Assembly: GCA_040905425.1 (NCBI GenBank) | Contig: JBBDRO010000100.1 | Coordinates: 66,953-130,952, forward strand | Direction: 5' to 3' | Source: Gemmatimonadota bacterium | GTDB taxonomy: Bacteria; Gemmatimonadota; Gemmatimonadetes; Longimicrobiales; RSA9 | Length of the DNA stretch: 64,000 nt | Shown: piece after piece, positions 38,032 to 57,054 of the stretch | How the letters are laid out: every line of letters begins with the position of its first letter | Numbering within the stretch: position 1 is the stretch's first letter | The notes under the pieces: model-generated | The model's input: only the letters and a program-made list of their open reading frames with translations | What the model was told of the DNA's origin: nothing | Database searches by the model: none | Program-made: the position numbers and the translations under genes

Positions 38032-38073
38032 CGCGAGCCCCCCGTCGCGCGCGACGGAGGGCTCGTTCGGGGA

Positions 38074-38148
38074 TGGGCGCGGAGGGATTTGAACCCCCGA
38101 CCTTCCGGGTGTAAACCGGACGCTCTGAACCAACTGAGCTACGCGCCC
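38074..38148 (-). tRNA. tRNA-Val (anticodon UAC)
   Basis: The minus strand folds as a cloverleaf by hand: acceptor GGGCGCG/CGCGCCC, D arm GCTC..GAGC, anticodon stem TCCGG/CCGGA with loop TTTACAC, T arm GGGGG-TTCAAAT-CCCTC, discriminator A. No CCA is encoded. Confidence 0.95.
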
Positions 38149-38191
38149 GCGAGGGCAAATCGTAGCGCCCGTCGGCCGCGGCGTCCAGCGC

Positions 38192-38752: not shown

Positions 38753-38950
38753 GGTTCCGCCTCCCTTCTCCGTCCCCGACGCCCGCACCGGGTACACCCA
38801 AAACTACGACGCGGCGGCGGCCGATCACATGGGAGGTTTTCCGGAATCGGTGTGGGGAGCTTTCCGGCTCCTGTGGGCCGGCTCGATGCGCACGCGCGCG
38901 TGTGCCCGATGCAGTGTGACGGGCGCCCCCGGCGGTGCCGGAGAGCGTGG

Positions 38951-39166
38951 CTAGCGGATGATGCCCAGCGGCAGGAGAACCGCGTAGCCGAGCACCAGCA
39001 GCAGCGGCGCGCCGACCGTGGAGCCACCCGCCAGCAGCACGTAGCCGGCCACCACGGCGAGCAGCCCGGCCACGAGCAGTACGGCGTTCACGGTGGAGAA
39101 TTCCAGCGAGCCCCGTTGCTGATCGGGGCGGGTTGGCTTCGCGCGCGTGCCGGTGCGTATATTCAT
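38951..39166 (-). CDS. Small two-TM membrane protein (71 aa), last gene of the che/mgl operon
   Basis: MNIRTGTRAKPTRPDQQRGSLEFSTVNAVLLVAGLLAVVAGYVLLAGGSTVGAPLLLVLGYAVLLPLGIIR. It lies 32 nt after the upstream peptidase gene. The rest of the 348-aa track ORF is antisense artefact. Confidence 0.5.
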   Translation of the reverse strand: MNIRTGTRAKPTRPDQQRGSLEFSTVNAVLLVAGLLAVVAGYVLLAGGSTVGAPLLLVLGYAVLLPLGIIR

Positions 39167-39198
39167 GCGCCGGAAACTGGCGGCGCTACGGGCGGCGG

Positions 39199-40230
39199 TC
39201 AAGGTGGCGGCTGTCCCGAGGGTGGCGGCGGTGGCGGCGGTGGTGGCGCTGTCCCGGGGTCCTCTCCCAACCAGTAGGCGGGTCGATCGGGAAGCTCGCT
39301 GGCGCGCAGGCGCTCCAGCCGCTCGCGGTTGCGGCGCCGCCGCAGGTAGGTGAGCGCCACCACCAGCACGGCCAGGAAGGCCCACAGCACCACGCTCTGC
39401 GCCAGAAAGACCAGCCAGCCGTAGCGGCTCCGCACCCGCTCCAGCCAGAGCCGCTCGAACTGCGTGGAGGAGACAGCGTACGTGGCGCGCATGGCCTGCT
39501 CGAAGGAACCCGTGGCCCGCCAGCGCTCCAGGAACGGTCCGAAGCCGCTCCCCCCGCCCTGCTCCGCCAGGTAGCGGACGGCATCGGCGGCCAGGAGGTA
39601 GGCCACCCGGGCCTGGCTGGTCCCGCGCGGCCAGGCCAGCGTGAGCTCGTCCAGCGACGGGGCGCTGCCGGTCAGGAACGCCACCCTGAGCATCCATCCC
39701 GCCGCCGGATCCAGCTCGCCCGCGGCCCACGTGGCGTACCCCTCGGAGAACCAGCGCGGTACCGCCGCGCGGCCCACCCGACGCTGCAACCCCACGTGCG
39801 CCAGTTCGTGCTTGAGAATGCGGGCCAGCTCGTTCATGGCGGCCGTACGCGGCGCGTGCAGGGGCAGCACGATGCGGCCCTCGAAGGGCAGCGCCACCCC
39901 CGCGCCCCACTCGGGGACCTGGCCGCCGGTCAACGCGTCGAAGGCCGCCTCGTCGGCCACCAGATGGATGTCCACCGTGTCGCCGCCCGGCCACCACCCC
40001 GCGGGGAAGCCGGGCAGCGGCAGGGCGTCCACCGCGCTCGCCAGCAGACGTTCGGCCAGTTCCCGCGCGGCGGCCGGCGCATACATGCGCATGCCGGGCC
40101 CGCGCAGCACGATGGTGGCGTCCTCCTGCCGGGCACCCGGTGCCGCGCGCCCGCCGAGGGGGGCAGCGGCGAAGAGCAGGAGAACGGCCGCGGCAACGAC
40201 CCCCGTGCGGCGCGGACTACGCCTGCGCAC
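39199..40230 (-). CDS. Membrane-anchored HEXXH zinc peptidase (peptidase MA-like) with a poly-Pro C-terminus
   Basis: Signal-like N-terminus, HELAH...WFSEGYA, a TM segment (YGWLVFLAQSVVLWAFLAVLVVALTYL), and a PPPPPPPPPSGQPPP tail. The start overlaps the cheB stop by 14 nt. Confidence 0.65.
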   Translation of the reverse strand: MRRRSPRRTGVVAAAVLLLFAAAPLGGRAAPGARQEDATIVLRGPGMRMYAPAAARELAERLLASAVDALPLPGFPAGWWPGGDTVDIHLVADEAAFDALTGGQVPEWGAGVALPFEGRIVLPLHAPRTAAMNELARILKHELAHVGLQRRVGRAAVPRWFSEGYATWAAGELDPAAGWMLRVAFLTGSAPSLDELTLAWPRGTSQARVAYLLAADAVRYLAEQGGGSGFGPFLERWRATGSFEQAMRATYAVSSTQFERLWLERVRSRYGWLVFLAQSVVLWAFLAVLVVALTYLRRRRNRERLERLRASELPDRPAYWLGEDPGTAPPPPPPPPPSGQPPP

Positions 40231-40867
40231 GGCGGGCCAGGAGCCGCATCCTGGTGACCACGGCGGCGCCCAGTTCGCTCAGCGGCAGGACGAGCTGCGC
40301 GTGCTCCGCGGCGGCGCGCGGCATGCTGCCCATGGTGGCGCTGGCCTCGTCCTGCGCCACGGTCCAGCCCCCCGCCTCCCGGATGGCGCGCATGCCCTCC
40401 GCGCCATCCCTCCCCATGCCCGTCAGCACCACGCCCGCCCCCGCCGGACCGAAGTGGCTCGCCACGGCGTGGAACAACAGGTCGGCCGTGGGGCGTAGGC
40501 CGCCCACGGGGTCCCCGTCGAGCGCCGTGAAGACCACGCCGGCCGCCGTCCTGGCCAGACCCAGATGCGCACCGCCCGGCGCCAGGTAGACGGTGCCGGA
40601 GCGGACAAGTTCTCCCGGCACGGCCTGGCGTACCGGGAGCGGCGTCAGGCCGTTCAGCCGGGCCGTGAGGGAGCGTGTAAAGAAGGCCGGGATGTGCTGG
40701 ATGACGATCACGGCGGCGGGAAAATCACCGGGCAGCTCGGCGATCAGGCGGGCCAGTGCGGAGGGCCCACCGGTGGAGGCGGCCACGGCCACCGCCGCGA
40801 CCGCCGGGGCCGATGCCGCCGGATCGGCATGCGGCGGCGACCCCCGGGTGGACTCAGAGTTCGACAT
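40217..40867 (-). CDS. cheB: Chemotaxis methylesterase CheB, catalytic domain only (no receiver domain)
   Basis: AVAASTGGPSAL, IVIQHIP and LTGMGRDGAEG; 216 aa. The ORF has no room for an N-terminal REC domain. Confidence 0.9.
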   Translation of the reverse strand: MSNSESTRGSPPHADPAASAPAVAAVAVAASTGGPSALARLIAELPGDFPAAVIVIQHIPAFFTRSLTARLNGLTPLPVRQAVPGELVRSGTVYLAPGGAHLGLARTAAGVVFTALDGDPVGGLRPTADLLFHAVASHFGPAGAGVVLTGMGRDGAEGMRAIREAGGWTVAQDEASATMGSMPRAAAEHAQLVLPLSELGAAVVTRMRLLARRAQA

Positions 40868-41345
40868 CGGGCGCTCGCATGGAGCTTACCAGGAGGCGGC
40901 CGTCGGTCGTGTGCAGGAAGACCGAGCGGCCGTAGCCGCCGCCCACGTCCTTGGCCACGAGCGGGATGCGGACAGCATCGAGCGCGCGCGTGGCGGCTGC
41001 CACATTGCGCTGTCCCAGGTTGCGGCGGTGCTCCTCCGCCACCGATTCGAACATGCTGGCCCCGCCAACCAGGCGGGCGCGCAGGCGGCCCGGGGCCGCG
41101 CCAGCCGTACGCATCTGGTCGATCAGGACCTGCACCGCTGTGGCGGCAAAGCGTCCCAGGGGCGTGGGGCGCCGTCCATCGGCGGGATCGGGCAGCATGG
41201 CGTGGGCCATCCCGCCCACACGGGCCTCCGGGTCCCACAGGGTGATGGCCACGCAGGATCCCAGACCCAGCGCACAGAGCACCTCCCCGCTACGCCCCAC
41301 CTTCACCTCGCCGATGCGGACGGGGACGCGAATGGGCCGCGTCAT
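40854..41345 (-). CDS. cheD: Chemoreceptor glutamine deamidase CheD
   Basis: LCALGLGSCVAITLWDPEARVGGMAHAMLP, and a ...GGYGRSVF end; 163 aa. Confidence 0.9.
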   Translation of the reverse strand: MTRPIRVPVRIGEVKVGRSGEVLCALGLGSCVAITLWDPEARVGGMAHAMLPDPADGRRPTPLGRFAATAVQVLIDQMRTAGAAPGRLRARLVGGASMFESVAEEHRRNLGQRNVAAATRALDAVRIPLVAKDVGGGYGRSVFLHTTDGRLLVSSMRAPDVEL

Positions 41346-42259
41346 GTACGGCGGTACACGCGTTCACGCGGGGCCACCGGGCTGAACAGTCCCGTGGCGC
41401 TACCGAAGAGGGCCTCCACCTTCCCCAGCACCAGGAATCCCCCTGGCGCCAGAGCCGCGTGAAGGCGGCGGAAGAGATCCTCCTGCACCCGCCGTTCGAA
41501 GTAGATGATCACGTTCCGGCAGAGGATGAGGTGCTGCTCGCGTGGGAAGGGATCGCGTAGCAGATCCAGCGGCCGGAAACGAACCCTGGCGTGCAGTTGC
41601 TCGTCGACCGTGCGTTGATCAGGGCCGCCGAACCAGCGCCGGCGCCGTCCCGCATCCAGATCACCCATGGCATACTCGGCGTAGGTTCCGGAGGCGGCCG
41701 CGGCCAGCGCACCGCGGTCCACGTCGGTGGCCAGAATGCGGCAACGCTGCGGCTCCAGGCTGCCAGCACTCTCCTCCACGAGCATGGCCAGCGAATAGGC
41801 TTCCTCGCCCGCCGCGGTGCCCGCGCTCCACAGCCGTACCTCGCCCCGGACCACGGCCAGCTCCGGGACCACCGCATCACGCAGGACCTTCCAGACCTCC
41901 GGATTGCGGAGAAACTTGCTCACGTTGATGGTCACGGCGTTCAGGAGCCGCTCGAGTTCCTCCGGCTGGCCCTCGAGCAACCGCTGGTAGGCGGCGTAAT
42001 CGTGCACACCACAGGCACGCATGCGCACGGCCACGCGGCGCCGCATGCAGCGCTCCTTGTAGCTGGCGCACGCCAGGCCGGTGCGGTTCTCCACGTAGCC
42101 CAGGAGGGCACCCAGCTCCGCCACTTCACGCTCGGTCAGCGGACCGTGCGCCAGCGGGAGGATGGCGTTCGGAGCGGCCCGGCGGTCCGCGGGCGGACGG
42201 ACCACGCGGCCCGCCCGCGGGGGCGGCGTGGCGCCGTTGGCGCGCTCCTCAGCCGGCAT
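41342..42259 (-). CDS. cheR: Chemotaxis protein methyltransferase CheR
   Basis: Start at MPAEERANG. The CheR N-domain is followed by a SAM domain (RLWSAGTAAGEEAYSLAMLV, ILCRNVIIYF). Confidence 0.9.
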   Translation of the reverse strand: MPAEERANGATPPPRAGRVVRPPADRRAAPNAILPLAHGPLTEREVAELGALLGYVENRTGLACASYKERCMRRRVAVRMRACGVHDYAAYQRLLEGQPEELERLLNAVTINVSKFLRNPEVWKVLRDAVVPELAVVRGEVRLWSAGTAAGEEAYSLAMLVEESAGSLEPQRCRILATDVDRGALAAAASGTYAEYAMGDLDAGRRRRWFGGPDQRTVDEQLHARVRFRPLDLLRDPFPREQHLILCRNVIIYFERRVQEDLFRRLHAALAPGGFLVLGKVEALFGSATGLFSPVAPRERVYRRT

Positions 42260-43868
42260 GCTCCACGATCTCCAGATTGTTGCGCACCACGCGATTGTGC
42301 GGGTTGAGCTCCAGGGCGCGGGTCCAGTGGCGCACCGCCTCCTCCCGCTGCCGTCCCTTGTAGAGCACATTGCCCATCTTGGCGTGCAGGTCATCCCCCA
42401 GGTCGGGATCCAGCTCGGCGGCGCGCTGATAGTGCTCCAGGGCGTCCTCGTGGAGGCCGCGCCGATAGATCACGTCCCCCAGGTTCTTGTGTGCCTGCGC
42501 CAGGCCGGGCTCTTCCTCTGAAGCGCGCCGATAACAGGCCTCCGCATGATCCAGGTTGCCACGCCGCTCGTGCACCAGCCCAGCCAGGAGGTGGACAGAG
42601 GCGGCATTGGGATGCGCCTCGACCGCCTCACCGGCCAGCGCGGCGGCACGGTCCAGGTCCCCGCCAAGCGCCGCAGCGAGCCCCGCGAAATGGTAGTACT
42701 GGGGAGAGGGCACCGCCGTGCCCAGCCGCCTGCGATACTCGGCATAGGCCTCGGCCGCTTCCGCGGGCCGCAGGGCATGGGTGAGCGTGAGGCCGCGTGC
42801 CAGCGCCACGGTCGGCGTGCCCGCCCGCAGCGTCTCCGCCTCATCCAGCACCAGGAGAGCGTCATCGAAGCGCTCCAGCGCGCGTAGGGAAACGGCCAGA
42901 TTCACGAAGGCGGCGAACTGCGGGCCGTGATCCTCCAGCAGGGACTTGAGCTGCCGCACCGCGGCGCGGTGGCGGCCGTCGCGCATGGCGGACAGCGCCA
43001 GATGGAAGCGGGCGGAGAGATCGTGCGGTTCCAGTTCCAGCACCCGCCCGAACTCACGCTGCGCATCCTCCAGCATGCCTGCGCGGAAGAACGCGGTCCC
43101 CAGGTTGCGGCGCTCCGCCAACTCCGCCGCCTTGCCGCGGCCACCCTCCTTTTCCTTGCGGCGCCCCACCCGATGGCAGAATCCCGCCTGGATGAGGCCG
43201 AAGAGCGCCTGCCCCACGGTGAACTCCACCAGCCCGCTCTCGTCCACCAGATCCTGAACGCTGCGCTCCCCGTCCAGCAGCAGGACAATGCGCTGCTGCT
43301 CCGCGGTGAGTTCCACATCGGAGGTGAGCAAACGCTCACTCTCCACTTCGAAGACCAGATCCAGGGAGGGGATCTTCTTCTCGATCAGGCTCCACTCGTC
43401 CACCCGGCGGGCGGCCTCCAGCAGGAGACTCTCCGGATTGATGGACACCAGGATGTCCGCCGAGTCGGGCTGCTCCCCCACCTCGAAGTAGAAGCTGCCG
43501 CGCGACCAGGTGAAGAGATGGTAGATGGCCTCTTCGATCTGCAGCCGGACGTAGCGCTCCAGATCCGCGCTGGTGATGTGGCCCTGCTCCACGAGCAGCT
43601 CTCCCACGCGGCGGTCAGGCTGCTGTGTCTGCAGCGCCAGTACCGCCTCGAGCTGCTCCTGCGTGAGGACGTCGTCGCGCACCAGGAGATCACCCAGGCG
43701 GTCCCGTCGGTTCACGACCTGTGCATACGTGATGCGGCCGGCTTCGAAGTAGATCTGACCGAAGCGCGAGCGATCCGTAACGGAAAGGCAACCGGTCTTC
43801 TGACCGAGCGCCAGGAGCTGGCACACGTCGGCCAGACTGGCCTCCTTCAGACTCCCCTTGATGGCCAT
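42249..43868 (-). CDS. PATAN (DUF4388) domain protein with a helical insertion and C-terminal TPR repeats (paralogue 2)
   Basis: Start at MAIKGSLKEASLADVCQLLALGQKTGCLSV. It has an inserted LGDLLVRDDVLTQEQLEAVLALQ / VGELLVEQGHITSADLERY repeat, then TPRs (VLELEPHDLSARFHLA, AAELDPDLGDDLHAKMG, ALELNPHN). Confidence 0.75.
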   Translation of the reverse strand: MAIKGSLKEASLADVCQLLALGQKTGCLSVTDRSRFGQIYFEAGRITYAQVVNRRDRLGDLLVRDDVLTQEQLEAVLALQTQQPDRRVGELLVEQGHITSADLERYVRLQIEEAIYHLFTWSRGSFYFEVGEQPDSADILVSINPESLLLEAARRVDEWSLIEKKIPSLDLVFEVESERLLTSDVELTAEQQRIVLLLDGERSVQDLVDESGLVEFTVGQALFGLIQAGFCHRVGRRKEKEGGRGKAAELAERRNLGTAFFRAGMLEDAQREFGRVLELEPHDLSARFHLALSAMRDGRHRAAVRQLKSLLEDHGPQFAAFVNLAVSLRALERFDDALLVLDEAETLRAGTPTVALARGLTLTHALRPAEAAEAYAEYRRRLGTAVPSPQYYHFAGLAAALGGDLDRAAALAGEAVEAHPNAASVHLLAGLVHERRGNLDHAEACYRRASEEEPGLAQAHKNLGDVIYRRGLHEDALEHYQRAAELDPDLGDDLHAKMGNVLYKGRQREEAVRHWTRALELNPHNRVVRNNLEIVEHAG

Positions 43869-43890
43869 CAGCCGCCTTCCTTCCGGCGCC

Positions 43891-45675
43891 TCATTCGCCC
43901 TCCTCCAGCGGTACGTCCTGATGGCCGGGCCAGTCCCAGAGCGCCTTTTCACGGCTCGTGAACCAGTGGTCCAGCGCCCCCCCCCGCCCCACCAGGGCGC
44001 CAGCTTCCCGCGGCGCGGGATCGGCGATGGGACGCAGACCCGCTGGCGCGGCCACCGGCTCCGTCCCGGAGGCCTCCTCATCCACGCTGCCGGAGGCGGT
44101 GAGTTCCACCACCAGCCCGGTCTCGAGGCGCCCACGGAGCCGATCCTCCAGGCCGTCGATCAAAGCCGGCGGGCCGGCGGCGCTGAAGAGCAGACGGGCC
44201 CCCGCACGACGTAGATGGTCGAAGAGGTGGAAGAGCTCCTCCTGGGCGCCCTCGGTGTCCGCCAACTCGTCCACGTCGGGCATGACCAGTACCCCCACCC
44301 GGCGCAGCCGGGCGCGCCAGGCCTCTACACCGTCGTGACCGAGCGCGTCCACCAGTTCGGAAGCAAATTCACGGCCTGGCAGCCAGGCCACGGTGAGCCC
44401 CTTCTGCAATTCCGCGATCTCGCGTGCCACGGCGGCCAGCACACGCTCGGCCAGTTCCCGGTCCCCGTGCAGGAAGTAGGGCACGTACCGGTCTCCGGTC
44501 CCCTGGGCCACCGCCGCACCGGCGCGCACGGCAAGATGGTTGGCGGGCAACGGCAACTCGGCCAACGTGGGCCCGGGTGGCGGCCGGGGCACGGGACGGG
44601 TGCGCGCCTGCACGGCCACCAGCAGTCCTTCCGCCTCCGTCACCCGCGCCGGGTCGCGCAGCACGTCGGTGCGCTCCAGCTCCGGGGCGTCACCCTCCGC
44701 TTCACGAATGAGGCGGGCCACGGTGCGCAGCCGCTCCACGCGTGACGCGAACCCCGTCAGGAACGCCTCCACCGCGGCCTCGGCCGGCGGGCTCGCCAAC
44801 GCCTCCTCAAGCAGGCGGGTGCGGAAGCCCTCCCCCTCCCAGCGGAGGATGGCCTCGGCCAGTTTGGCCTCGCTGCCGCCCGGCGAGACCACCTGACCGA
44901 TCGTGCCGGTGATCTCCGTCAGGAAGGCGCCGAACTCGTCGGGACCGCGCCGGTCCAGGGCCAGGCCGAGGAGACGACCCGCCTCCTCCATGCTCACCTG
45001 GCGGCCCTCCAGTTCCTGGATGGCCAGGATCCGGTTGAGTGCGCCCTGCAGCTCCCGCACGTTCGCGAAGGCGCCGCGCGCCAGGGCCTCCGTCACCCCA
45101 TCGCCGAGGGCCTGCCCGCGCTCCTCCGCCTTGCGGCGCACGATGGCCGCGCGGGTCTCCATGTCAGGCGGTGCCAGATCCGCTATAAGCCCCCCGGAGA
45201 AGCGGCTGAGGAGCCGATCGTCCAGTTCGTCGATCTCCGTGGGCGGACGGTCGCTGGCCAGCACCACCTGCCCGCCGCGCGACGCCATGCCGTCCCACGC
45301 CCGCAGCAACTCCTCCTGAACGGCTCGCCGTCCCGCCAGGAACTGGATATCGTCGAGCAGGAGGAGATCCGCGGCGTGGATCCGCTCCCGGAAGGCATCG
45401 CGCTGCCCGGACCGGATGGCACTCATCACGCCCTCCACCAGATGCTCCATGGTGTCGTAGGTGATGCGCAGGTCCGGATGGATGGTGCGCGTATGCTGCC
45501 CGATGGCCATGACCAGGTGCGTCTTGCCCAGCCCCGAGGCACTGTAGAGGAAGAGCGGGTTGTAGGCGGAGCCGGGCGTGTCGGCAACGCGCCGCGCTGC
45601 CGCAGCCGCGAGACGATTGGACGTCCCGACAATGAAGCTCTCGAAGGTGAGACGAGGGTCCAGCTCCAGCGACAT
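43891..45675 (-). CDS. DnaA-domain-III (Hda-like) AAA+ ATPase, internally duplicated, lacking DnaA domains I, II and IV
   Basis: The N-half aligns by eye to DnaA domain III: LDPRLTFESFIVGTSNRLAAAAARRVAD, Walker A SASGLGKTH, Walker B LLLLDDIQF, box VII DRLLSRF, sensor 2 NVRELQGALNRI. Residues around 395-560 repeat the same order with the P-loop lost. No DnaA signature or HTH is present. Confidence 0.85.
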   Translation of the reverse strand: MSLELDPRLTFESFIVGTSNRLAAAAARRVADTPGSAYNPLFLYSASGLGKTHLVMAIGQHTRTIHPDLRITYDTMEHLVEGVMSAIRSGQRDAFRERIHAADLLLLDDIQFLAGRRAVQEELLRAWDGMASRGGQVVLASDRPPTEIDELDDRLLSRFSGGLIADLAPPDMETRAAIVRRKAEERGQALGDGVTEALARGAFANVRELQGALNRILAIQELEGRQVSMEEAGRLLGLALDRRGPDEFGAFLTEITGTIGQVVSPGGSEAKLAEAILRWEGEGFRTRLLEEALASPPAEAAVEAFLTGFASRVERLRTVARLIREAEGDAPELERTDVLRDPARVTEAEGLLVAVQARTRPVPRPPPGPTLAELPLPANHLAVRAGAAVAQGTGDRYVPYFLHGDRELAERVLAAVAREIAELQKGLTVAWLPGREFASELVDALGHDGVEAWRARLRRVGVLVMPDVDELADTEGAQEELFHLFDHLRRAGARLLFSAAGPPALIDGLEDRLRGRLETGLVVELTASGSVDEEASGTEPVAAPAGLRPIADPAPREAGALVGRGGALDHWFTSREKALWDWPGHQDVPLEEGE

Positions 45676-45682
45676 TGCTCTC

Positions 45683-46312
45683 CTAGGTAGTGGCTGCGCC
45701 CGTCGGCGGCGCTTCGATCTTCTGACGGAAGCGGCGCGACAGGCTCTGCAACGTGAGCTGGCTGACCGCCTTCAGGGTGTCGAAGACGCCGTCCCCGGTG
45801 AGCGCCGCGGCCGGGAACGCCGGTACGTCACGAAAGTTCAACGTGTCATCCAGGTCGGCCACGCTCATGATCCCCGGCAGGTCCCGCTTGTTGTACTGCA
45901 GGACCATGGGGAAGTCTTCCAGCTCCACGTTTTCCTCCAGGAGATTCTCGTGGAGATTGCGCAGACTGTCCACGTTCTCCTCCATCTTCTCCCGCTGCGA
46001 ATCGGCCACGAAGACCACGCCGTCGGCCCCGCGCAGTACCAGCTTGCGGGTGGCGTTGTAGTACACCTGACCGGGCACCGTGTACAGTTGTACGCGCGTC
46101 CGGAACCCTGAGATCGTGCCCAGGTCGAGCGGCAGGAAATCGAAGAAGAGCGTGCGGTCTGTCTCCGTGGCCAGGGAGACCATGGGTCCCTTCCGCTCGT
46201 CCGGCACGTACGCGTGCACGTACTGGAGGTTGCTCGTCTTGCCGGACCGCCCCGGCCCGTAATAGACAATCTTGCAGGTGATCTCACGGGTGGAATAATT
46301 GACCAGGGACAT
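45683..46312 (-). CDS. mglA: Ras-like small GTPase MglA
   Basis: MSLVNYSTREITCKIVYYGPGRSGKTSNLQY...TETDRTLFFDFLP...LYTVPGQVYY...QYNKRDLP. It is near-collinear with Myxococcus MglA as I recall it, including the intrinsic Arg and Gln positions. Confidence 0.93.
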   Translation of the reverse strand: MSLVNYSTREITCKIVYYGPGRSGKTSNLQYVHAYVPDERKGPMVSLATETDRTLFFDFLPLDLGTISGFRTRVQLYTVPGQVYYNATRKLVLRGADGVVFVADSQREKMEENVDSLRNLHENLLEENVELEDFPMVLQYNKRDLPGIMSVADLDDTLNFRDVPAFPAAALTGDGVFDTLKAVSQLTLQSLSRRFRQKIEAPPTGAATT

Positions 46313-46342
46313 GGTTCGATTCCTGGGAGGGGGAGGCGTTCG

Positions 46343-46828
46343 TCAATCCGGGTCCGACTCGAAGACCCGCTGGATCCCCGCTTCGAGATCTCGCTCGAAA
46401 CTGGCCTGATCCGTGGATCCCAGGTCGGCGCCGAATATGGGCAATGCGGCCAGGTCGGCCGCCAGACGGTCGAAGAAGAACTGTACCAGACCGAGCGTGG
46501 AGCCGCCGTCGAAGATCGTCACCACGATCAATTCCTCTACCGGAGTCTTCACGGGTGCCAGGAAGAGCTGCCGCTCCCTGCCCGCATGGTAGAGATGGGT
46601 CCACCGCCCCGCGCCCGAAATCTCGGCGAGCATACGGGAGGAGGCGTGTGCCGCCGCGGCCAGCGATGCCACGTTCACCACTTCGTAGCTGCTGGCAAAC
46701 CCGTGCTGCGCCAGCACCTGCCCCGAGTGGTTCACCAGCAGCGCCAGGCGGACCCGCGCCTCGCGTACGAAGCCATGCATGGGCTCGCGCACCGCACCCA
46801 TGATGGCGGGCAGTTCGTCACTTCTCAT
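46343..46828 (-). CDS. mglB: Roadblock/LC7 protein MglB (MglA GAP family) with an acidic tail
   Basis: ALLVNHSGQVLAQHG...VVTIFDGGSTLGLVQFFFDRLAADL parallels MglB VVIFDNRTSLGLVRLRIKKASDEL. The gene order mglB-mglA matches Myxococcus. Confidence 0.85.
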   Translation of the reverse strand: MRSDELPAIMGAVREPMHGFVREARVRLALLVNHSGQVLAQHGFASSYEVVNVASLAAAAHASSRMLAEISGAGRWTHLYHAGRERQLFLAPVKTPVEELIVVTIFDGGSTLGLVQFFFDRLAADLAALPIFGADLGSTDQASFERDLEAGIQRVFESDPD

Positions 46829-47175
46829 TGCAGCCCCGCCGCCGCGCGCTCGGCCTCAACGCGGATCATACCCAGCTGAGCGTCGGATTCGGCGATGGCC
46901 ACCACCACGAGCGGACCCGCGCCCGCCATCACCACATGGCCGCCCGCGGCCTCGAGCTGTACGGCCGTGAGCGCACCCATGGAACCGGCGGCCGTGGCAT
47001 GGCCGGCCCGTTGGAAGAGGGAAGCGGCCAGGGCCGCCAGCGGGCCACCGTCCACGCCGGCGGCCAGTTCGGCGGTCACCGGGACACCCGTCTCGGCCTC
47101 CACCACCATGGCGCCCCGTACACCCTGTACACGGGTGAGGGCGGCAACAGCCGCATCGAACGCGTCGGGATTCAT
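46825..47175 (-). CDS. Stand-alone Roadblock/LC7 domain protein (second paralogue)
   Basis: Start at MNPDAFDAAVAALTRVQGVRGAMVVEAETGVPV. 116 aa, with 4-nt overlaps at both ends. Confidence 0.75.
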   Translation of the reverse strand: MNPDAFDAAVAALTRVQGVRGAMVVEAETGVPVTAELAAGVDGGPLAALAASLFQRAGHATAAGSMGALTAVQLEAAGGHVVMAGAGPLVVVAIAESDAQLGMIRVEAERAAAGLQ

Positions 47176-48155: not shown

Positions 48156-48180
48156 TCCTCGTTGCCGCCATGCAGGAAGC

Positions 48181-49305
48181 TCATCGGGCCCCGCTCTCGA
48201 CCACCCGCGTCAGCACGCGCAGGGCGGCCAACCCCTCATCCACGACCTTCCGCTCATCACCATCGGGCATCAGGCGCAGGTAGGTGTCCCATGCGCGCGC
48301 GCCGCGCTCCAGGTCCCCGGTGCGCACGGCCGAGAAGCCCAGGCGGAAGTGCCCTTCGGTGGAGAGCGGATCCAGCCCCACGGCCCGTGCGTAAGCCTCC
48401 GTTGCCGCGCGCATGCGCCGCTGCGCCTCCAGGGCCCGACCCGCCAGCAGGGCAATCTCCGCGTGCTCGGGGTATGCGGTCTCGAGTTCCGCGGCCAGTT
48501 TCTGCGCCTCCTCCACACGGCCGTCGGCCAGGTGTTGCTCGGCCCGCGCCATGGCCTCCCGGAGCTCACCTTCCGGTACGTGGCTGCGCTGCTCCTGCAC
48601 CTGCAGCACACCCGTGCTCACCAGTCCGTAGATCGTCTTGGCCACGTCGAACGCGCTGCGTCCCAGGTCCGCCGCGATCTGCCGGATATCCCGGTGCGCG
48701 TCGATTTCCGCGAGCACCTCCCACTCCTCCGTGCGCAGGTCGAGCGGCGCCGCCTCGCGCTCGGCGGCCGGGGCCAGCACCGGCACCGCCTCGGGACCGG
48801 GCACCTTGGATTCCAGCCGCGTCCATTCATCGATCCGCCGGGCACCCTCCATGAGCAGCGACTCCACCCGCACCTGGGCCAGCAGGCGGCCCTGACCGAT
48901 GCCGGCACGCTCCTCGAAGCGGAAGTACCCCTCGTCCCAGCCCATCAGTTCGTAGACGGTCTCCTCCATCTGGAAGCGGAGTTGCCGCTCCAGTTCTTCC
49001 TCCGTGATGCTCCCCATCTCCAGGAGGATCTCGGCCAGTCGGCGCGTGGGGTCGGTGCGCTGCAGTTCGAGCGCGCGATCCAACTCCCGCTGCGTGAGTC
49101 GACCGGCCCGGATGAGCAGCTGCCCCAGCCGCCGCGGCGAGCGCCGCCGTACCGCGAACACGATGGCGCCCCGACTGAAGTGGACGATGGCCTCGTCGTT
49201 CAAACGATCCGAGCGAACCGTCAGCACGCCGGTCTTGTGCGCCAGTTCGAGGAGCTGGAGCACGTCCTGGATGCTGAGTTCCTCGAGGGGCCCCTCGATG
49301 GCCAC
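48181..49305 (-). CDS. PATAN (DUF4388) domain protein with a helical insertion and C-terminal TPR repeats (paralogue 1)
   Basis: GTG start at VAIEGPLEELSIQDVLQLLELAHKTGVLTV. The insertion is LGQLLIRAGRLTQRELDRALELQ / LAEILLEMGSITEEELERQ, followed by TPRs. The upstream 96 aa of the track ORF overlap the TPR gene. Confidence 0.75.
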   Translation of the reverse strand: MAIEGPLEELSIQDVLQLLELAHKTGVLTVRSDRLNDEAIVHFSRGAIVFAVRRRSPRRLGQLLIRAGRLTQRELDRALELQRTDPTRRLAEILLEMGSITEEELERQLRFQMEETVYELMGWDEGYFRFEERAGIGQGRLLAQVRVESLLMEGARRIDEWTRLESKVPGPEAVPVLAPAAEREAAPLDLRTEEWEVLAEIDAHRDIRQIAADLGRSAFDVAKTIYGLVSTGVLQVQEQRSHVPEGELREAMARAEQHLADGRVEEAQKLAAELETAYPEHAEIALLAGRALEAQRRMRAATEAYARAVGLDPLSTEGHFRLGFSAVRTGDLERGARAWDTYLRLMPDGDERKVVDEGLAALRVLTRVVESGAR

Positions 49306-49318
49306 GCGCCCTCCCCGC

Positions 49319-52012
49319 CTACGTGGCCGCGACCGGCGCCGCGCCCGGCGCCGCGCTCTGGAGCCGCTCCAGCGCAGCGCTGGCGTCCGCGTTGCCGGGG
49401 TCGAAGCCGAGGGCGCGCCGATAGGCCACGCGCGCCTTGCCGTGCATGCCGGCATCCTCCAGCACCGCCCCCAGGCGAACCAGACCCTGGAGGTGGTAGG
49501 GATCCACCGTGAGGAGATCCACCAAGGCGGCGATGGCCTCGCGGTGGTGCCCGCGCCCGCGCTCGACCTCCGCCAGCCCGAGCGCGGCCTCACCGTAGCT
49601 GGGCAGGACCGCCAGCGCCACGCGGTACTCCGCCGCCGCCGCCGCCGCGTCCCCCCGCCGCGTCAGCACCCGTGCCAGAGCCGTGCGCGCCGCCGGCGCG
49701 TCCCCGCCACGCTCCAGAGCGTCACGCAACGCCCGCTCGGCGCGGGCCGTTTCGCCGGCCTCCAGGGCGGCGCGACCGAGCTGCGTGAGCAGGCCGGGAT
49801 TGGCCGGTCCGGTGTCCACGGCCTCCTCCAGGACCAGCATGGCCCGGCCGTGGTCGCCCACCTGGGTCAGTCCCTCCGCCAGCGTGCGCAGCGCCACCAC
49901 GTCACCCGGGAACAGCTCGGTGAGTCGCTCGGCCGCCTCCACCGCTTCCCGCGGCCTGTCGAGCTGGAGCAGCGAGCGGGCGGCGCCGAGCAACGCCCTG
50001 CCGAGGGCGGCCTCGCCCTCGTCGTCCTCGTCGCTCGCCGTACCACCTCGCGCCACCTCGGCCAGGGCGGCCTCGAAACGCTCCACCGCCTCACCCGCCG
50101 CGCCGCGGCGCAGGAAAGCCTCACCCTGCAGAAGGAGGCCCTGCACCCGGGGGCCGCCCTCCTGGATCATGTGCAGGGCCTCACGCTGCACCGCCTCCAG
50201 GTCTCCCCGGTCGAGCGCGGCCTGCGCCGCGGCCAGCCGGCTCCGGCCGCCCGCGGGGGAAGCGGCCTGGCCCGAACCCTCCCGGGCAAAGACCGAATCC
50301 AGCTCGCCCGCATCAGGCACGAAGGCCTCGATGGGCTGCCCGGGGCGGACCTCCTCCGCCGCGTCCAGCTCGGGCGCCAGCACGCTCGTCTCCTCGTACT
50401 GCAGGTCGATGAGCAGCCGGTGGCGCGCGGGGGGGATGAAGGGGCTCTTCTCCAGGGCGTGCCGGGTCTCCCGCAGCGCACCCTCGTAGTCCCCCAGTGC
50501 GGACAGGGCGAACGCCAGGTTGTAGCGTGCCTCGGCCAGGTCGGGGTCGAGCTCTACCGCGCGTACGAGAGCATCGCGCGCTCCGGAGGCATCGCCACCC
50601 TCCATGAGCGCGGCGCCCAGCCCGGCCCAGGCGGGGGCGGCGCCGTCATCGGCCTGCAGGGCCACGCGAAAGGTCTCGACCGCCTCGCCATGGCGGCCGG
50701 CGCGTTGCAGCAGGAGCGCCAGGTTGCGGGCCACGTCGGCCGTGGCCCGTCCGCCCTCGAGTGCTCGCCGCAGCAGTTGCTCGGCCGGCTGCGGCCGCCC
50801 CTGGTGCAGCTCCGCGACGGCCAGGTTGTTCAGGACCAGGACGTAACTACCGTCCAGTTCGAGCCCGCGCCGGTAGGCGGCCGCGGCACCGTCCAGATCC
50901 CCCTGCTGGTGCCGCGCCACGCCAAGCTCGTTCCACAGCTTGGGAGAATCAGCCTGCTGCCGCGTGAGCGCCTCGTAGAGACTGACGGCTTCCGCGTCCC
51001 CCCGCAGCAGCAGCATCTCCGCCTGGGCCTGCTGCACCAGTTGAGCGTCCTCCCCCCTTTCCGTGGCCAGGCGGAACTCCCGCAGCGCCTCGTCGAAAAG
51101 CGCCTTCTGCCGGAAGGCAATGCCCAGATTGTAGTGGGCCAGCGCCGCGTTCTCGGCCACGGCGGGTCCCTCGCCACGCTCGCCCACCAGCTCCTGATAC
51201 CGGGCGTTGCTGTGGCTGTCCAGGGACAGATTGGTCTCGGCGCGGGACAGTGACGGGTTGAGCTCGGACGCACGGGCCGCAGCGCTGCCCGCCTGTTCCT
51301 CCATGCCCAGGTCACCGTAAACGAAGGCCAGGAGGTGATGCGCCTCCGCCAGCGACGGCTGGAGCTGGACCGCCATCTCCAGCGGTCCCCGCGCCTCGGC
51401 GCTTCGTCCCTGCTGGTACTTCACCTCCCCCATGAGGAGGTGTGCGCGGGCGTTCGAAGCGTCCAGCGCCGCCGCGTTGCCCAGCGCCACCAGCGCCTCG
51501 TCCGGACTGCCCCGCCGCAGCTCGGCGCGCGCCAGCATGAGGTAGACGGCGGCGTCGCGCGGACGACCCGTCTGGACGGCACGCCACTCACGCACCGCCG
51601 CCTCGGCGTCCCCCGAATGGTAGTAGGCGCGCGCGAGCCGCTCCCGGGCCACGAGGTCATCGGCGTCGCGAGCCAGCGCGGCGCGGGCATCGGCCACCAG
51701 CCGCTCGAAGTAGCCGGTGCCGAAGAAGACGATGCGCAGATTGCGCTCCGCCACCTGCATGCGGGGATCCAGTTCGAGGGCGCGCTCGAACTGTTCCGCG
51801 GCATCCCCGAAGAGTCCCTTGTGATAGTAGACCACGCCCAGGTTGTTGTGGGCGTTCGGGTCATCCTGCTTGATACGGCGGGCCAGGCCGCGGAGCAACT
51901 CGGCGTCCCGCTCCGAACGCGGCTGTGCGCCCTGGGGCCGGCTGCGCGGACCGTCGCCTCGATCCCGCCAGGGAAGCGTGGGCTGCTGCGGCTCGGGCCG
52001 GGGCGTACTCAC
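49319..52012 (-). CDS. Large TPR-repeat protein (897 aa)
   Basis: About 20 TPR-like units throughout (NNLGVVYYHKGLFGDAAEQFERALELDP, YNLGIAFRQKALFDEALREF, WNELGVARHQQGDLDGAAAAYRRGLELD). The GTG start overlaps the cheC stop (GTGA). Confidence 0.8.
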   Translation of the reverse strand: MSTPRPEPQQPTLPWRDRGDGPRSRPQGAQPRSERDAELLRGLARRIKQDDPNAHNNLGVVYYHKGLFGDAAEQFERALELDPRMQVAERNLRIVFFGTGYFERLVADARAALARDADDLVARERLARAYYHSGDAEAAVREWRAVQTGRPRDAAVYLMLARAELRRGSPDEALVALGNAAALDASNARAHLLMGEVKYQQGRSAEARGPLEMAVQLQPSLAEAHHLLAFVYGDLGMEEQAGSAAARASELNPSLSRAETNLSLDSHSNARYQELVGERGEGPAVAENAALAHYNLGIAFRQKALFDEALREFRLATERGEDAQLVQQAQAEMLLLRGDAEAVSLYEALTRQQADSPKLWNELGVARHQQGDLDGAAAAYRRGLELDGSYVLVLNNLAVAELHQGRPQPAEQLLRRALEGGRATADVARNLALLLQRAGRHGEAVETFRVALQADDGAAPAWAGLGAALMEGGDASGARDALVRAVELDPDLAEARYNLAFALSALGDYEGALRETRHALEKSPFIPPARHRLLIDLQYEETSVLAPELDAAEEVRPGQPIEAFVPDAGELDSVFAREGSGQAASPAGGRSRLAAAQAALDRGDLEAVQREALHMIQEGGPRVQGLLLQGEAFLRRGAAGEAVERFEAALAEVARGGTASDEDDEGEAALGRALLGAARSLLQLDRPREAVEAAERLTELFPGDVVALRTLAEGLTQVGDHGRAMLVLEEAVDTGPANPGLLTQLGRAALEAGETARAERALRDALERGGDAPAARTALARVLTRRGDAAAAAAEYRVALAVLPSYGEAALGLAEVERGRGHHREAIAALVDLLTVDPYHLQGLVRLGAVLEDAGMHGKARVAYRRALGFDPGNADASAALERLQSAAPGAAPVAAT

Positions 52013-52626
52013 ACGAGCCTCAGCGCCCGGAGCATGGCCTCCAGCGACGCGTCATCCGGAATGAGCAGGAAGTGGGCGCCCATCTCCGTTTTACCGTCCA
52101 GCATGAGGTCCGTATTCATGACGAAGACAAAGTCCTGGTCCGCACCGAAATTCACATAGCTGGTGGACAGCACCGCGCCCACCATGTCCATGGCAAAGGA
52201 GGGCACGGACATGATGAGCAGCATGCCCATGAACTCGGAGAGCGCGTTCAGGTAGGCGCCCACGATGATGTTGCCCACCTCTTCCAGGATGGACTGCTCG
52301 GCCGGTCCGAGATCACGTGGGAACTCCAGGCCCTTGCGGCCTCCCATGATCTCCACCAGTACGGCGGCGGTGCCAGCGGGGAAAAGCTGGAGGGTTCGTC
52401 CGGTGACGTCCCCCAGGACCTTCATCACCACGGCGGAGACGGGCTCCTGGGGGTCGCCCATGGCCGAGGAAACATCCTCGAGTGCCACTACCTTCACCTC
52501 GGGCACTGACACGGTGATGGCCCGCGTGGTCATGTCCGACAACGCCGTGGCCGCGTGCCCCGCGCCGATATTGGCGATCTCGCGGAGCGCGGAGTACTGG
52601 ATCTCGGTGAGGCCGCGCACGTCCAT
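52009..52626 (-). CDS. cheC: CheC-family CheY-P phosphatase
   Basis: Two CheC repeats: SALREIANIGAGHAATALS and ILEEVGNIIVGAYLNALS (the D/S-X3-E-X2-N-X22-P type context); 205 aa. Confidence 0.85.
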   Translation of the reverse strand: MDVRGLTEIQYSALREIANIGAGHAATALSDMTTRAITVSVPEVKVVALEDVSSAMGDPQEPVSAVVMKVLGDVTGRTLQLFPAGTAAVLVEIMGGRKGLEFPRDLGPAEQSILEEVGNIIVGAYLNALSEFMGMLLIMSVPSFAMDMVGAVLSTSYVNFGADQDFVFVMNTDLMLDGKTEMGAHFLLIPDDASLEAMLRALRLV

Positions 52627-52630
52627 TCGA

Positions 52631-54442: not shown

Positions 54443-54452
54443 GGAGGTCGGT

Positions 54453-54815
54453 TCAGCCCAGCACGCGCTGTACGGCTTCGAGCACGCGGGAAGGCTGGAA
54501 CGGTTTGACCACGAAGTCGCGCGCCCCCGCCTGGATAGCTTCGATGACCAGCGCCTGCTGTCCCATGGCGCTGCACATGAGGATACGGGCTTTGGGGAAC
54601 TCCTTGACGATCGCGCGCACGGCATCGATACCGCCCATGTCCGGCATCACGATGTCCATGGTGACCAGATCCGGTTTCAACTCGCGGTATTGTTCCACCG
54701 CCTCGGAGCCGGTCTGCGCTTCACCGACCACCTCGAAGCCCGCCTGCTTCAGGATCTCTCCCAGCATGGTGCGCATGAAGAGTGCGTCATCGCAGATCAG
54801 AACGGTTCGTGCCAT
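54453..54815 (-). CDS. cheY: Chemotaxis response regulator CheY (stand-alone receiver)
   Basis: MARTVLICDDALFMR...DLVTMDIVMPDMGG...FVVKPF; 120 aa. Confidence 0.93.
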   Translation of the reverse strand: MARTVLICDDALFMRTMLGEILKQAGFEVVGEAQTGSEAVEQYRELKPDLVTMDIVMPDMGGIDAVRAIVKEFPKARILMCSAMGQQALVIEAIQAGARDFVVKPFQPSRVLEAVQRVLG

Positions 54816-54849
54816 GGTTCCTCGATGGGATGGTTCGTGCGGCGGCGCC

Positions 54850-55342
54850 TCATGCGGCCAGCAGCCGTTCGATGAGCGCATCGGGGTTCAGCAGCAGCGC
54901 GCGGTGCCCGGCCAGTTCCGCCACGCCCAGGACGTCCCCGGGTTCGAGCCCCATGCCGCGGAGTTCGTCCTCGTCGAGCGCCGCCCAGTCGGCGGCGCCC
55001 GGCGCCCCCCGGAGCCATCCGGAGCACTTCCTCCACGGCCAGAGCCAGCGGGCGCTCGCCGTCGTCCACGAAGACGAGCCGGTGCCCCGGCCGCGCGGCG
55101 GCCGGCCGTAGGCGCAGCACCACGCCCAGGTCACAGACGGTGACTACGAGGCCGCGCAGCCCTACCAGCCCGCACACTTCCGGACCGCAGCCGGGCAGCC
55201 GCGTGACCGGCCGCGGCGTGGTGATCTCGCGCACCCGGTCGAGCGGCAAGCCAAGCCGGTGGCCGTCACACGTGAGCAGCACCCAGCGCGGTAGCGGGGC
55301 CGTGGTCGATCCCCCGTCGGACGTGACCGCCGTGCTCTCCAT
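54850..55342 (-). CDS. cheW: CheW coupling protein, apparently frameshifted at a G6 run (C6 on the plus strand, 55005-55010)
   Basis: The N-part is in the frame of track ORF 54797..55342 (WVLLTCDGHRLGLPLDRVREI...PLALAVEEVLRMAPGG). The C-part is in the frame of ORF 54850..55134 (APGAADWAALDEDELRGMGLEPGDVLGVAELAGHRALLLNPDALIERLLAA). Removing one G restores a CheW of about 164 aa. Confidence 0.75.
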
Positions 55343-55374: not shown

Positions 55375-55404
55375 AAGATAGCGCGCCGCGAGCGAGCGGG
55401 TCAA
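55375..55404 (-). promoter_or_regulatory. Putative sigma70-type promoter of the che/mgl operon
   Basis: The minus strand reads TTGACC-18 nt-TATCTT (-35 at 55399-55404, -10 at 55375-55380). The -10 lies 33-38 nt upstream of the cheW ATG. Confidence 0.4.
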
Positions 55405-55479: not shown

Positions 55480-55545
55480 GGGCCGGGCGCCGGTGGCTAG
55501 CGGGCCGGGCGCCGGTGGCTAGCGGGCCGGGACGCCGGTAACTAT
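55480..55545. repeat. 22-bp tandem direct repeat, two perfect copies plus one degenerate copy, between rluD and cheW
   Basis: gggccgggcgccggtggctagc occurs at 55480-55501 and 55502-55523, then gggccgggacgccggtaactat at 55524-55545. The third copy overlaps the rluD stop codon. Confidence 0.85.
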
Positions 55546-57051: not shown

Positions 57052-57054
57052 CCT

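Follow-up and report, generated by a model that had tools for sequence, protein, structure and literature searches.

To our knowledge, the only route known from a Che-type chemosensory pathway to the small GTPase MglA is that of Myxococcus, which runs via separately encoded regulators and is still debated. The Frz pathway of Myxococcus xanthus contains the CheA-receiver fusion FrzE, the cytoplasmic receptor FrzCD and the dual-receiver protein FrzZ. In this species, mglA lies away from the genes that encode its partners, and Frz acts on the MglA/MglB switch from separate loci (PMC4316618). Occasionally, mglA and mglB are found beside PATAN genes, as observed for Group 1 and Group 5 MglA (PMC4316618). 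In Synechocystis, the PATAN domain serves PatA-type regulators as their output domain and has PilB1 and PilC as binding partners, and an insert in the domain was likened by the authors of that study to the N-terminal repeats of pilus ATPases (bioRxiv 10.1101/2021.06.11.447907). Here, we describe an array of 17 genes at positions 38951-55342 of a 64,000-nucleotide stretch of DNA (the window) from contig C100 (JBBDRO010000100.1) of a Gemmatimonadota genome, a 4.12 Mb metagenome-assembled genome (MAG) that is 96.7% complete (GCA_040905425.1). Homologs with a taxonomic name belong to Longimicrobiales and Gemmatimonadota. The array combines che genes with genes for MglA, Roadblock proteins, PATAN-TPR scaffolds and a DnaA-derived ATPase. 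We favour, at about even confidence, the view that it is one conserved chemosensory-to-polarity unit, most likely controlling polar type IV pilus activity and with it surface motility and cell polarity.

A preliminary description of the window, made from the sequence alone, listed 17 minus-strand genes from 55342 to 38951 with no gap larger than 34 nucleotides (nt) and with seven start/stop overlaps, and both statements were reproduced from the coordinates of the open reading frames (ORFs). Its further statement that the che genes are split into two blocks around a GTPase module was confirmed by the Pfam-assigned gene order, in which cheW-Y-A-C and cheR-D-B bracket the genes for MglA/MglB/Roadblock, the PATAN-TPR proteins and the duplicated DnaA domain III (DnaA-III) ATPase. 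The raw ORF lists are crowded because the window has a G+C content of about 72%, and genes were selected by third-position GC and start-codon context. In the order of the operon, the features are:

55375-55404, minus strand: promoter-like site, TTGACC-18-TATCTT, sigma70-like, by consensus match only
54850-55342, minus strand: cheW, frameshifted as assembled; Pfam CheW, profile positions 2-90 of 138 only
54453-54815, minus strand: cheY, single-domain receiver of 120 aa; Pfam Response_reg, 107.5 bits
52631-54442, minus strand: cheA, 603 aa; Pfam Hpt-P2-dimerisation-HATPase-CheW
52009-52626, minus strand: cheC, phosphatase of phosphorylated CheY (CheY-P), 205 aa; Pfam CheC, 71.8 bits
49319-52012, minus strand: all-TPR protein, 897 aa; Pfam TPR families
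48181-49305, minus strand: PATAN1, PATAN (DUF4388) with C-terminal TPR, 374 aa; Pfam DUF4388, 110.7 bits
47172-48149, minus strand: TPR-Roadblock-like protein, 325 aa; Pfam TPR in the N-terminal part, Robl_LC7 at residues 219-291 with 19.6 bits (cut-off 23)
46825-47175, minus strand: Roadblock/LC7 protein, 116 aa; Pfam Robl_LC7, 25.8 bits
46343-46828, minus strand: mglB-like Roadblock protein, 161 aa; Pfam Robl_LC7, 35.7 bits
45683-46312, minus strand: mglA paralog, 209 aa; 258.7 bits to M. xanthus MglA (6h17)
43891-45675, minus strand: DnaA-like tandem AAA+ protein, 594 aa; Pfam Bac_DnaA in two stretches
42249-43868, minus strand: PATAN2, PATAN with long TPR region, 539 aa; Pfam DUF4388, 135.6 bits
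41342-42259, minus strand: cheR methyltransferase, 305 aa; Pfam CheR, 155.4 bits, and CheR_N
40854-41345, minus strand: cheD, 163 aa; Pfam CheD, 94.8 bits
40217-40867, minus strand: cheB, methylesterase domain only, 216 aa; Pfam CheB_methylest, 188.8 bits
39199-40230, minus strand: Peptidase_MA_2 metallopeptidase, up to 343 aa, start uncertain; Pfam, 42.5 bits
38951-39166, minus strand: hydrophobic small protein, 71 aa, conserved by tblastn, with a transmembrane-like segment at residues 28-46

The overlaps measure 4 nt at cheC/TPR, TPR-Roadblock/Roadblock, Roadblock/mglB and cheR/cheD, 11 nt at PATAN2/cheR, and 14 nt at cheD/cheB and cheB/peptidase. The gaps in the 5′ part are 34 nt (cheW/cheY), 10 nt (cheY/cheA), 4 nt (cheA/cheC), 13 nt (TPR/PATAN1) and 31 nt (PATAN1/TPR-Roadblock), and those in the 3′ part are 30 nt (mglB/mglA), 7 nt (mglA/DnaA-like), 22 nt (DnaA-like/PATAN2) and 32 nt (peptidase/small protein). 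The value for cheW/cheY arises because the end of cheW was taken as the stop at 54850-54852 in a shifted frame. Most of the domain calls made earlier were recovered by the Pfam profiles (CheW, receiver, CheA, CheC, TPR, both PATAN domains, the GTPase, CheR, CheD, CheB and the peptidase), while the Roadblock domain of the TPR-Roadblock protein remained below the cut-off. The peptidase contains a HELAH motif, an N-terminal hydrophobic segment, a C-terminal transmembrane segment at residues 273-291 and a proline-rich tail, as seen in the sequence and hydropathy, and the 71-aa protein had a tblastn match in most relatives at 53-67% identity.

As in the Frz/MglA system, a Che-type pathway and an MglA/MglB(/Roadblock) switch are present in one organism, the GTPase carries the TVPGQ hallmark, and the MglB of the operon together with a further Roadblock protein recalls MglB and MglC. 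However, mglA is here located within the che operon, the CheA has no receiver domain (Pfam), and the cluster encodes neither a receptor nor a FrzZ-like double-receiver protein. The che genes also differ in that they look F1-like, and Frz has nothing that corresponds to the DnaA-like ATPase or to the PATAN-TPR proteins. The locus resembles the cyanobacterial Tax and Pix systems in that a Che-like pathway is encoded together with PATAN-domain proteins, but the PATAN domains of the operon are joined to TPRs rather than to a receiver, and MglAB, the Roadblock proteins and the DnaA-like ATPase are additional. The adjacency of mglA and mglB to PATAN genes is shared with the MglAB-PATAN neighbourhoods (Makarova et al. 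2006; Wuichet and Sogaard-Andersen 2014), from which the locus differs in being a fixed, class-wide array of 17 genes that includes che genes and the DnaA-like ATPase.

Previous knowledge thus covers the action of Frz on MglAB, the occasional MglAB-PATAN neighbours and the PATAN-receiver proteins of cyanobacterial Che-like systems. In the searchable literature, we found no che operon with embedded MglA or Roadblock genes, although an earlier mention of a Che-PATAN-MglB combination is possible (Makarova 2006; Wuichet & Zhulin 2010). Nor did this literature contain a class-wide conservation of such an operon, a DnaA-derived constant partner or a c-di-GMP (cyclic di-GMP) motif in PATAN-TPR scaffolds, and it held nothing relevant on Gemmatimonas and MglA or on a DnaA paralog in connection with chemotaxis or motility. 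The extra components of the locus had been called impossible to map to any described system, and no matching description was found in this literature. The DnaA-derived ATPase, in particular, is a component without a described counterpart.

To learn how widely the arrangement is conserved, we used the DnaA-like protein as bait for the order and fetched 18 loci, to which 14 loci around MglA matches in four further families were added, and searched them with the 17 products using tblastn; gene order was compared as far as each contig reaches. Of 24 genomes of the same family, 19 had a full-length match to the bait and one a partial match, and matches were also found in a second family of the order. 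The same gene order was identified in 27 loci from six families of the class Gemmatimonadetes, with 14 in f1 and f3, 12 in f4, f5, f6 and f8, and one in a Gemmatimonadaceae MAG (L056), and the cluster was always placed behind ileS-lspA-rluD. The survey had been proposed to see whether che, mglBA and DnaA-III co-occur repeatedly, and the combination does recur and is not unique to this genome. Since the same order is seen in 27 loci from other genomes, the arrangement is not a product of chance, and its retention across the class indicates that selection holds the operon as a unit. CheY is 77-88% identical across the class, compared with 39-50% for CheA, and the conservation of CheY while CheA drifts suggests that CheY has many conserved partners. 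An ortholog of the 897-aa TPR protein is present in every full cluster. No close MglA match was found in the other classes of the phylum.

Several loci in the class are reduced. The variant L011 has lost cheR-D-B, and L028 has retained cheY, the scaffolds, mglBA, the ATPase, PATAN2 and the peptidase and contains no cheA, cheW, cheC, cheR, cheD or cheB. In L022, L051 and L054, only a (Roadblock)-DnaA-like gene, the PATAN-TPR gene and the peptidase gene follow rluD, and in L051 and L054 a gene for a sigma54-type response regulator is located after the peptidase. The peptidase gene adjoins PATAN2 even in the reduced clusters. For two loci of one genus, L024 (genome G032) and L027 (genome G034), only DnaA-like (residues 1-354), PATAN2 and cheR-D-B were found; a sister genome (L025) contains the full array, and the cluster may be split in these two genomes.

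To identify relatives outside the phylum, 1.8 billion representative sequences were searched, using as query the ATPase sequence that follows the first DnaA domain. At E<=1e-30, there were 68 matches, most of which were two-domain proteins of 570-700 aa. One of these, P0193 (28% identity), is encoded in the order cheW, cheY, cheA, AAA/STAND-like, CheW-like, cheC, TPR (823 aa), PATAN (248 aa) and DnaA-like (688 aa). The same order is present in a MAG with 45% G+C labelled Candidatus Cloacimonetes bacterium 4572_55 (L055), which encodes a relative of P0193 at 66% identity and a CheY that is 66% identical to the CheY of the operon. The cluster in this MAG contains no mglA or mglB, and four MglA paralogs are located elsewhere in that genome. 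The extra genes between cheA and cheC in L055 (3719-5493) and in the P0193 contig encode an AAA_22/STAND-like ATPase of 272-280 aa and a CheW-domain protein of 310-344 aa. A search for further loci with P0193 was swamped by true DnaA genes of many phyla, and the informative loci were L055 and L056 only. In L053, the DnaA-like gene is located behind a homolog of the big TPR gene and near two bactofilin genes, and homologs of the 897-aa TPR gene precede the DnaA-like gene in both L053 and L055.

Taken over these loci, the DnaA-like gene adjoins a PATAN gene in three different architectures. The variants without MglAB, or without both che and MglAB, indicate that the constant core consists of the DnaA-like ATPase and the TPR/PATAN proteins, often under a Che pathway. 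In Gemmatimonadetes, the four-gene Roadblock/MglB/MglA block is placed exactly between PATAN1 and the ATPase, and it looks as if this block has been inserted into an older core, with loss in the other lineage as a possible alternative. The interpretation of the locus as a hard-wired Che-to-GTPase device is partly supported, in that che and MglA/Roadblock genes occur in one conserved order, but as variants without MglAB exist, the GTPase switch represents only one layer.

The N-terminal part of the DnaA-like protein (residues 1-236) is a complete DnaA domain III, with an E-value of 1e-57 to DnaA of B. subtilis (8bv3) and 43% identity to the DnaA of the genome itself, which is encoded on C19. 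The AlphaFold2 (AF2) model (pLDDT 88.4) was matched by Foldseek to 8bv3 with a TMt of 0.95, a root-mean-square deviation (rmsd) of 1.4 A and 42% identity. The Walker A (GLGKTH), Walker B (DD), box VII arginine and sensor 2 motifs of this domain are intact in 44 of 44 aligned family members. A helical linker, confidently modelled, follows at residues 247-360, and self-alignment and the model place a second DnaA-III core at residues 377-525. In this genome, the Walker A motif of the second core is gone (HGDRELAER) and the arginine-finger motif RLRGRLE is kept. Across the family, Walker A and B are intact in the second core of distant members and Walker B has decayed in the Longimicrobiales-type members, while RLRxRLE is near-invariant. 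This pattern is what might be expected of a pseudo-ATPase domain that donates its arginine to the active site of a neighbour. The duplicated AAA+ protein that had been described was thus recovered as two Bac_DnaA stretches, of which the second lacks a Walker A motif here.

Compared with DnaA and Hda, the protein has all nucleotide motifs of a full domain III in its N-terminal domain, but it contains two copies of this domain connected by a helical linker, the second of which is degenerate in the Longimicrobiales-type members. Domains I and IV were not found, as Pfam gave only Bac_DnaA, AAA and IstB_IS21, and the matches to full-length DnaA chains span domain III only. Moreover, its gene is located among signalling genes and not near genes of oriC, and the genome encodes a separate, canonical DnaA. 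The whole protein nevertheless passes the NCBIfam DnaA model TIGR00362 (353.7 bits against a cut-off of 343.9), because its two domain-III stretches sum. Several sources, JGI among them, name the relatives P0002-P0120 "chromosomal replication initiator protein", which is a misleading name and probably a systematic mis-annotation. A complex prediction for the DnaA-like protein and residues 1-235 of PATAN2 scored 0.18 (mark 0.32), which was weighed on neither side of the question of binding.

The PATAN proteins of the operon are the only two in the genome, and both scored far above the gathering cut-off of 25 bits for PF14332 (DUF4388). They were also recognised by NCBIfam NF053729, a model for MshE-related c-di-GMP-binding domains with a cut-off of 38 bits (PATAN1 43.8, PATAN2 49.3). 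The MshEN motif consists of two tandem 24-residue repeats, RLGxx(L/V/I)(L/V/I)xxG(L/V/I)(L/V/I)xxxxLxxxLxxQ (PMC5013675). PATAN1 contains two intact motifs of this type, at residues 59-82 and 89-112. In PATAN2, the motif at residues 87-110 is intact, and the one at residues 57-80 has an aspartate instead of the conserved turn glycine in this genome and a glycine in the orthologs. A motif scan, with 31 orthologs for PATAN2, showed that thirty orthologs retain the tandem 24-residue motifs. In the AF2 model of PATAN2 residues 1-235 (pLDDT 90.7), the motif helices form an insert inside the PATAN domain. Residues 55-115 of this model aligned to MshE with bound c-di-GMP (5htl_B) with a VIA-align Z of 10.4 and an rmsd of 2.6 A over 60 residues at 33% identity, and local Foldseek alignment of the insert to c-di-GMP-bound MshE gave 1.1 A over 56 columns at 36% identity; the Z to GSPII-B of PilF (8pdk_A) was 9.2.

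The operon domains thus resemble the MshEN/GSPII-B domains of the MshE and PilF ATPases in their tandem 24-residue motifs, in passing the NF053729 cut-off and in structure, but here the motif pair is an insert in the PATAN domain of a TPR scaffold rather than the N-terminus of a secretion ATPase, and the spacer is six residues long instead of five. Based on these motifs and the model, both PATAN-TPR proteins are likely c-di-GMP-binding scaffolds, which would provide a second input. There are 11 GGDEF matches in the genome. A weak one (24.4 bits; G000:C52:13295-13747) is located about 4 kb from the sole MCP (methyl-accepting chemotaxis protein) gene. In both PATAN1 and PATAN2, TPRs follow the PATAN domain and Pfam gave no Response_reg match, so that they are not PatA-type PATAN-receiver fusions. 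With TPRs and no receiver attached, the PATAN domain cannot be acted upon directly by phosphorylation. A similarity of PATAN2 residues 161-235, a helix and a winged helix, to the Nprl proteins of GATOR1/SEA, seen with Foldseek and VIA-align (Z 9.7-9.8, 18% identity), concerns a common fold and was not used.

The GTPase of the operon is, by its sequence, a true member of the MglA family. Its P-loop (GPGRSGKT) and switch-2 (LYTVPGQ) motifs match M. xanthus MglA (6h17) column for column, and it also contains ETDRTLFFDF. The alignment to 6h17 covers residues 1-193 with an E-value of 3e-76 at about two-thirds identity, and the score to T. thermophilus MglA (3t12) was 229.5 bits. The hallmark of MglA is Thr78, which replaces the usual aspartate in the switch-2 DxxGQ motif (PMC3000849). 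A second MglA, with an adjoining Roadblock (mglB) gene, is encoded on C65 (G000:C65:21467-22669; L043 9468-10670). Since this copy is nearer to M. xanthus MglA (300.9 against 258.7 bits), the operon MglA is regarded as a dedicated paralog and the pair on the other contig as the canonical mglBA. Two MglA matches are present in most genomes of the class.

The 161-aa gene is located 30 nt upstream of mglA, and the best PDB matches of its product were MglB of M. xanthus and T. thermophilus (E 2e-8). It scored 32.7 bits with the NCBIfam MglB equivalog model NF052242, which is built on Thermus and has a cut-off of 200. The protein is thus, as judged from these matches, of the Roadblock fold and MglB-like, and is not an equivalog by NF052242. 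The 116-aa protein matched the Roadblock/LC7 proteins 9jue_D and 7f8m_A in PDB, and not MglB. The position of the 325-aa TPR-Roadblock gene is conserved in the relatives. Of the three Roadblock proteins that had been proposed, the 116-aa and 161-aa proteins contain Robl_LC7, while the C-terminus of the 325-aa protein is sub-threshold (19.6 against 23 bits).

The kinase, response regulator and adaptation enzymes of a Che system were identified in the operon, namely CheA, in which Hpt, dimerisation, HATPase and CheW-like domains are present, together with CheW, CheY, CheR and CheB, and this cheA is the sole PF02895 match in the genome search. CheY contains the residues D9/D10, D54, S82 and K104. 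The best NCBIfam matches were to the haloarchaeal and Thermotogales models CheA_Halo, CheY_Halo and CheC_Thtogales (147.8 bits for CheC), all of them below their cut-offs. With CheC and CheD present, the che genes look F1-like, a class that is suggested by hints only. No MCPsignal match was obtained in the window, and the operon contains no receptor gene; the sole MCP of the genome, which has a HAMP domain and is transmembrane, is encoded alone at C52:7839-9626. CheB has its serine, histidine and aspartate motifs and no receiver domain, and most relatives have a receiver match between cheD and the cheB esterase. Without a receiver, CheB would be expected to escape regulation.

The call of a cheW gene was upheld by the Pfam CheW domain, but the ORF as assembled is frameshifted. 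Three-frame translation against L014 and L015 showed that residues 1 to about 109 are in frame from 55342 and that the conserved, ortholog-like C-terminus is encoded in another frame, ending at the stop 54850-54852. The change of frame coincides with a G6 run at about 55007-55012 or lies next to it (site about 54990-55015). In two other runs of the same study, the unitigs and contigs are interrupted at 54986-55008, and 54989-55005 is bridged by none of them. The frameshift may be an assembly slip or a real lesion.

Upstream of the operon, at 55542-63999, is the array ExbB-ExbD-ExbD-TonB-YggS-DivIVA-IleS-LspA-RluD, and the same array precedes the operon in L054. We take the yggS-divIVA-ileS-lspA-rluD part to resemble the distal division and cell wall (dcw) region of Firmicutes. 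A dcw cluster, ftsI-murE-murF-mraY-murD-ftsW-murC-ftsA, is located at 14-27 kb of the window, which together with the upstream array confirms the proximity of the operon to divIVA and dcw noted previously. The 199 nt that separate rluD from cheW contain the promoter-like site, and a regional scan gave two such sites compared with 0.6 expected from shuffled sequences. Terminator-like sites within the operon were as frequent as in shuffled sequence and all located in coding sequence, and they were not taken as evidence of internal termination. A search of sequencing runs listed no RNA run that contains this DNA. The ORFs at 38403-38828 and 37069-38406 were rejected as further operon genes, as they have no Pfam match, have the arginine-, glycine- and proline-rich look of out-of-frame translations, and are not conserved. 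A tRNA-Val gene (anticodon TAC) is located at 38074-38148 on the minus strand, inside the latter ORF. The end of the operon was placed at 38951 because of this tRNA gene and the artefactual look of the long downstream ORFs. ARAGORN also reported a tRNA-Met at 51397-51473 on the plus strand, antisense within the TPR gene, for which the Rfam tRNA model was silent and which is probably spurious.

There is no motility gene inside the cluster, and its output had been left open in the preliminary description. This stands for the cluster itself, but the genome narrows the options: a pilB(MshEN+T2SSE)-pilT-pilC cluster is located on C26, the CheA is the only one, and FlhA, the flagellar export gate, was not found in the 96.7%-complete MAG. 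Genome-wide, seven T2SSE-family ATPase matches scored above the cut-off. Among the relatives, the full-cluster genomes mostly have 5-9 PilT-family matches and lineages without an MglA match (for example the genera g28 and g61) mostly about two; these genomes are kin and not independent. A pilus output is favoured because of the sole CheA, the presence of pilB-pilT-pilC, the lack of a match to FlhA and the binding of PATAN to the pilus motor in cyanobacteria.

For the mechanism, we infer co-transcription, the binding partners, the direction of the signal and the pilus output. The orphan transmembrane MCP would drive CheA via CheW and pass the signal to CheY. CheC would be the phosphatase for CheY-P, and CheR, CheD and CheB would adapt the receptor. 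The proposed targets of CheY-P are the scaffolds or the set of Roadblock proteins rather than a flagellar motor. The MglA paralog would be switched by MglB and the two other Roadblock proteins, which are likely GTPase-activating proteins (GAPs) or regulators. The TPR and PATAN-TPR scaffolds would be effectors of CheY-P, of GTP-bound MglA (MglA-GTP) or of both, such that MglA-GTP and c-di-GMP may converge on these proteins, which in turn would reach the pilus motor. The DnaA-like ATPase may serve in ATP-driven assembly or turnover of the PATAN/TPR complex or as its switch partner.

A number of observations weigh against a pilus output. Of 151 genomes of the phylum, 148 were found to have PilT-family genes, genomes lacking the cluster among them, and pili thus do not track the cluster; with PilT near-universal, a phyletic comparison of pili and cluster cannot discriminate. 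The existence of the reduced trio without che and mglA implies that the DnaA-like/PATAN-TPR/peptidase set has a function that needs neither. The cluster is also present in the larger closed genomes of family f5, which may be flagellated, and the divIVA and dcw neighbourhood fits a non-motility role equally well. In addition, this copy of the operon could be decaying, given the cheW frameshift and the CheB without receiver. Two other functions remain live because the trio survives without che and mglA and because pili are near-universal in the phylum. In one, which we consider improbable, the unit governs the cell cycle, division or budding polarity, or replication, with the DnaA-like protein co-assembling or competing with DnaA or binding DNA. 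Consistent with this, the N-terminal domain resembles DnaA as closely as a genuine domain III does (42% identity, TMt 0.95), the arginine finger needed for DnaA-type oligomers is retained, the whole protein is above the NCBIfam DnaA cut-off, the cluster always follows divIVA-ileS-lspA-rluD near dcw genes, the trio outlasts the loss of che and mglA, and two bactofilin genes are located near the DnaA-like gene of L053. However, both the DNA-binding domain IV and domain I are missing from the protein, which is constantly accompanied by PATAN/TPR and Che proteins instead of replication genes. As the divIVA-ileS-lspA-rluD array represents an ancient housekeeping synteny, adjacency to it may mean nothing. 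Furthermore, PATAN and MglA are tied to pili wherever they have been studied (bioRxiv 10.1101/2021.06.11.447907).

The other, hardly more probable and still unlikely, is a Che system of alternative cellular function that controls extracellular polysaccharide (EPS) or biofilm formation, envelope remodelling via the metallopeptidase, or development, with MglA as an accessory switch. The c-di-GMP motifs in both PATAN proteins would suit such a role, as would the membrane-anchored Peptidase_MA_2 and the small membrane protein that always end the cluster, the sigma54-type response regulator behind the peptidase in reduced clusters and the cluster's lack of a motility gene. The known roles of PATAN and MglA are instead in pili and gliding, and this is the sole Che system of the genome, which has pili and for which the search for a flagellar gate gave no match. 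A mosaic without functional coupling, in which a che operon was passively split by an unrelated mgl/PATAN/DnaA-like block, appears very improbable. Blocks have been lost independently (cheRDB in L011, cheA/W/C/R/D/B in L028, all but three genes in L022), and G032 and G034 show only the 3′ half beside the DnaA-like gene (L024, L027). But the order is kept over six families with genes that overlap or nearly abut, che genes are present on both flanks, the che-TPR-PATAN-DnaA-like order recurs in the distant lineage with 45% G+C, and the contrast between CheY (77-88%) and CheA (39-50%) suggests many conserved partners.

Under the preferred reading as a chemosensory-to-polarity unit, one conserved operon would encode the whole chain, from a receptor-coupled kinase and CheY via scaffolds to the GTPase, its GAP-like Roadblock proteins, a second-messenger site and an ATPase, and since the class has cultured members this wiring is testable gene by gene. 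The locus points to PATAN domains as likely c-di-GMP receptors and to a non-replicative job for a DnaA-type ATPase, and it presents a trap for automatic annotation, which may label the ATPase as DnaA. We also put forward, more tentatively, that the DnaA-derived ATPase and the PATAN/TPR c-di-GMP receptors are the conserved output engine of an unclassified chemosensory lineage of the Fibrobacteres-Chlorobi-Bacteroidetes (FCB) group, with members in Gemmatimonadetes and in a lineage labelled "Cloacimonetes", into which the MglA/Roadblock switch was inserted privately in Gemmatimonadetes, between the genes for the scaffolds and that for the ATPase. If this is true, a replication-initiator fold would have been recruited to polarity signalling, or would link that signalling back to replication initiation.

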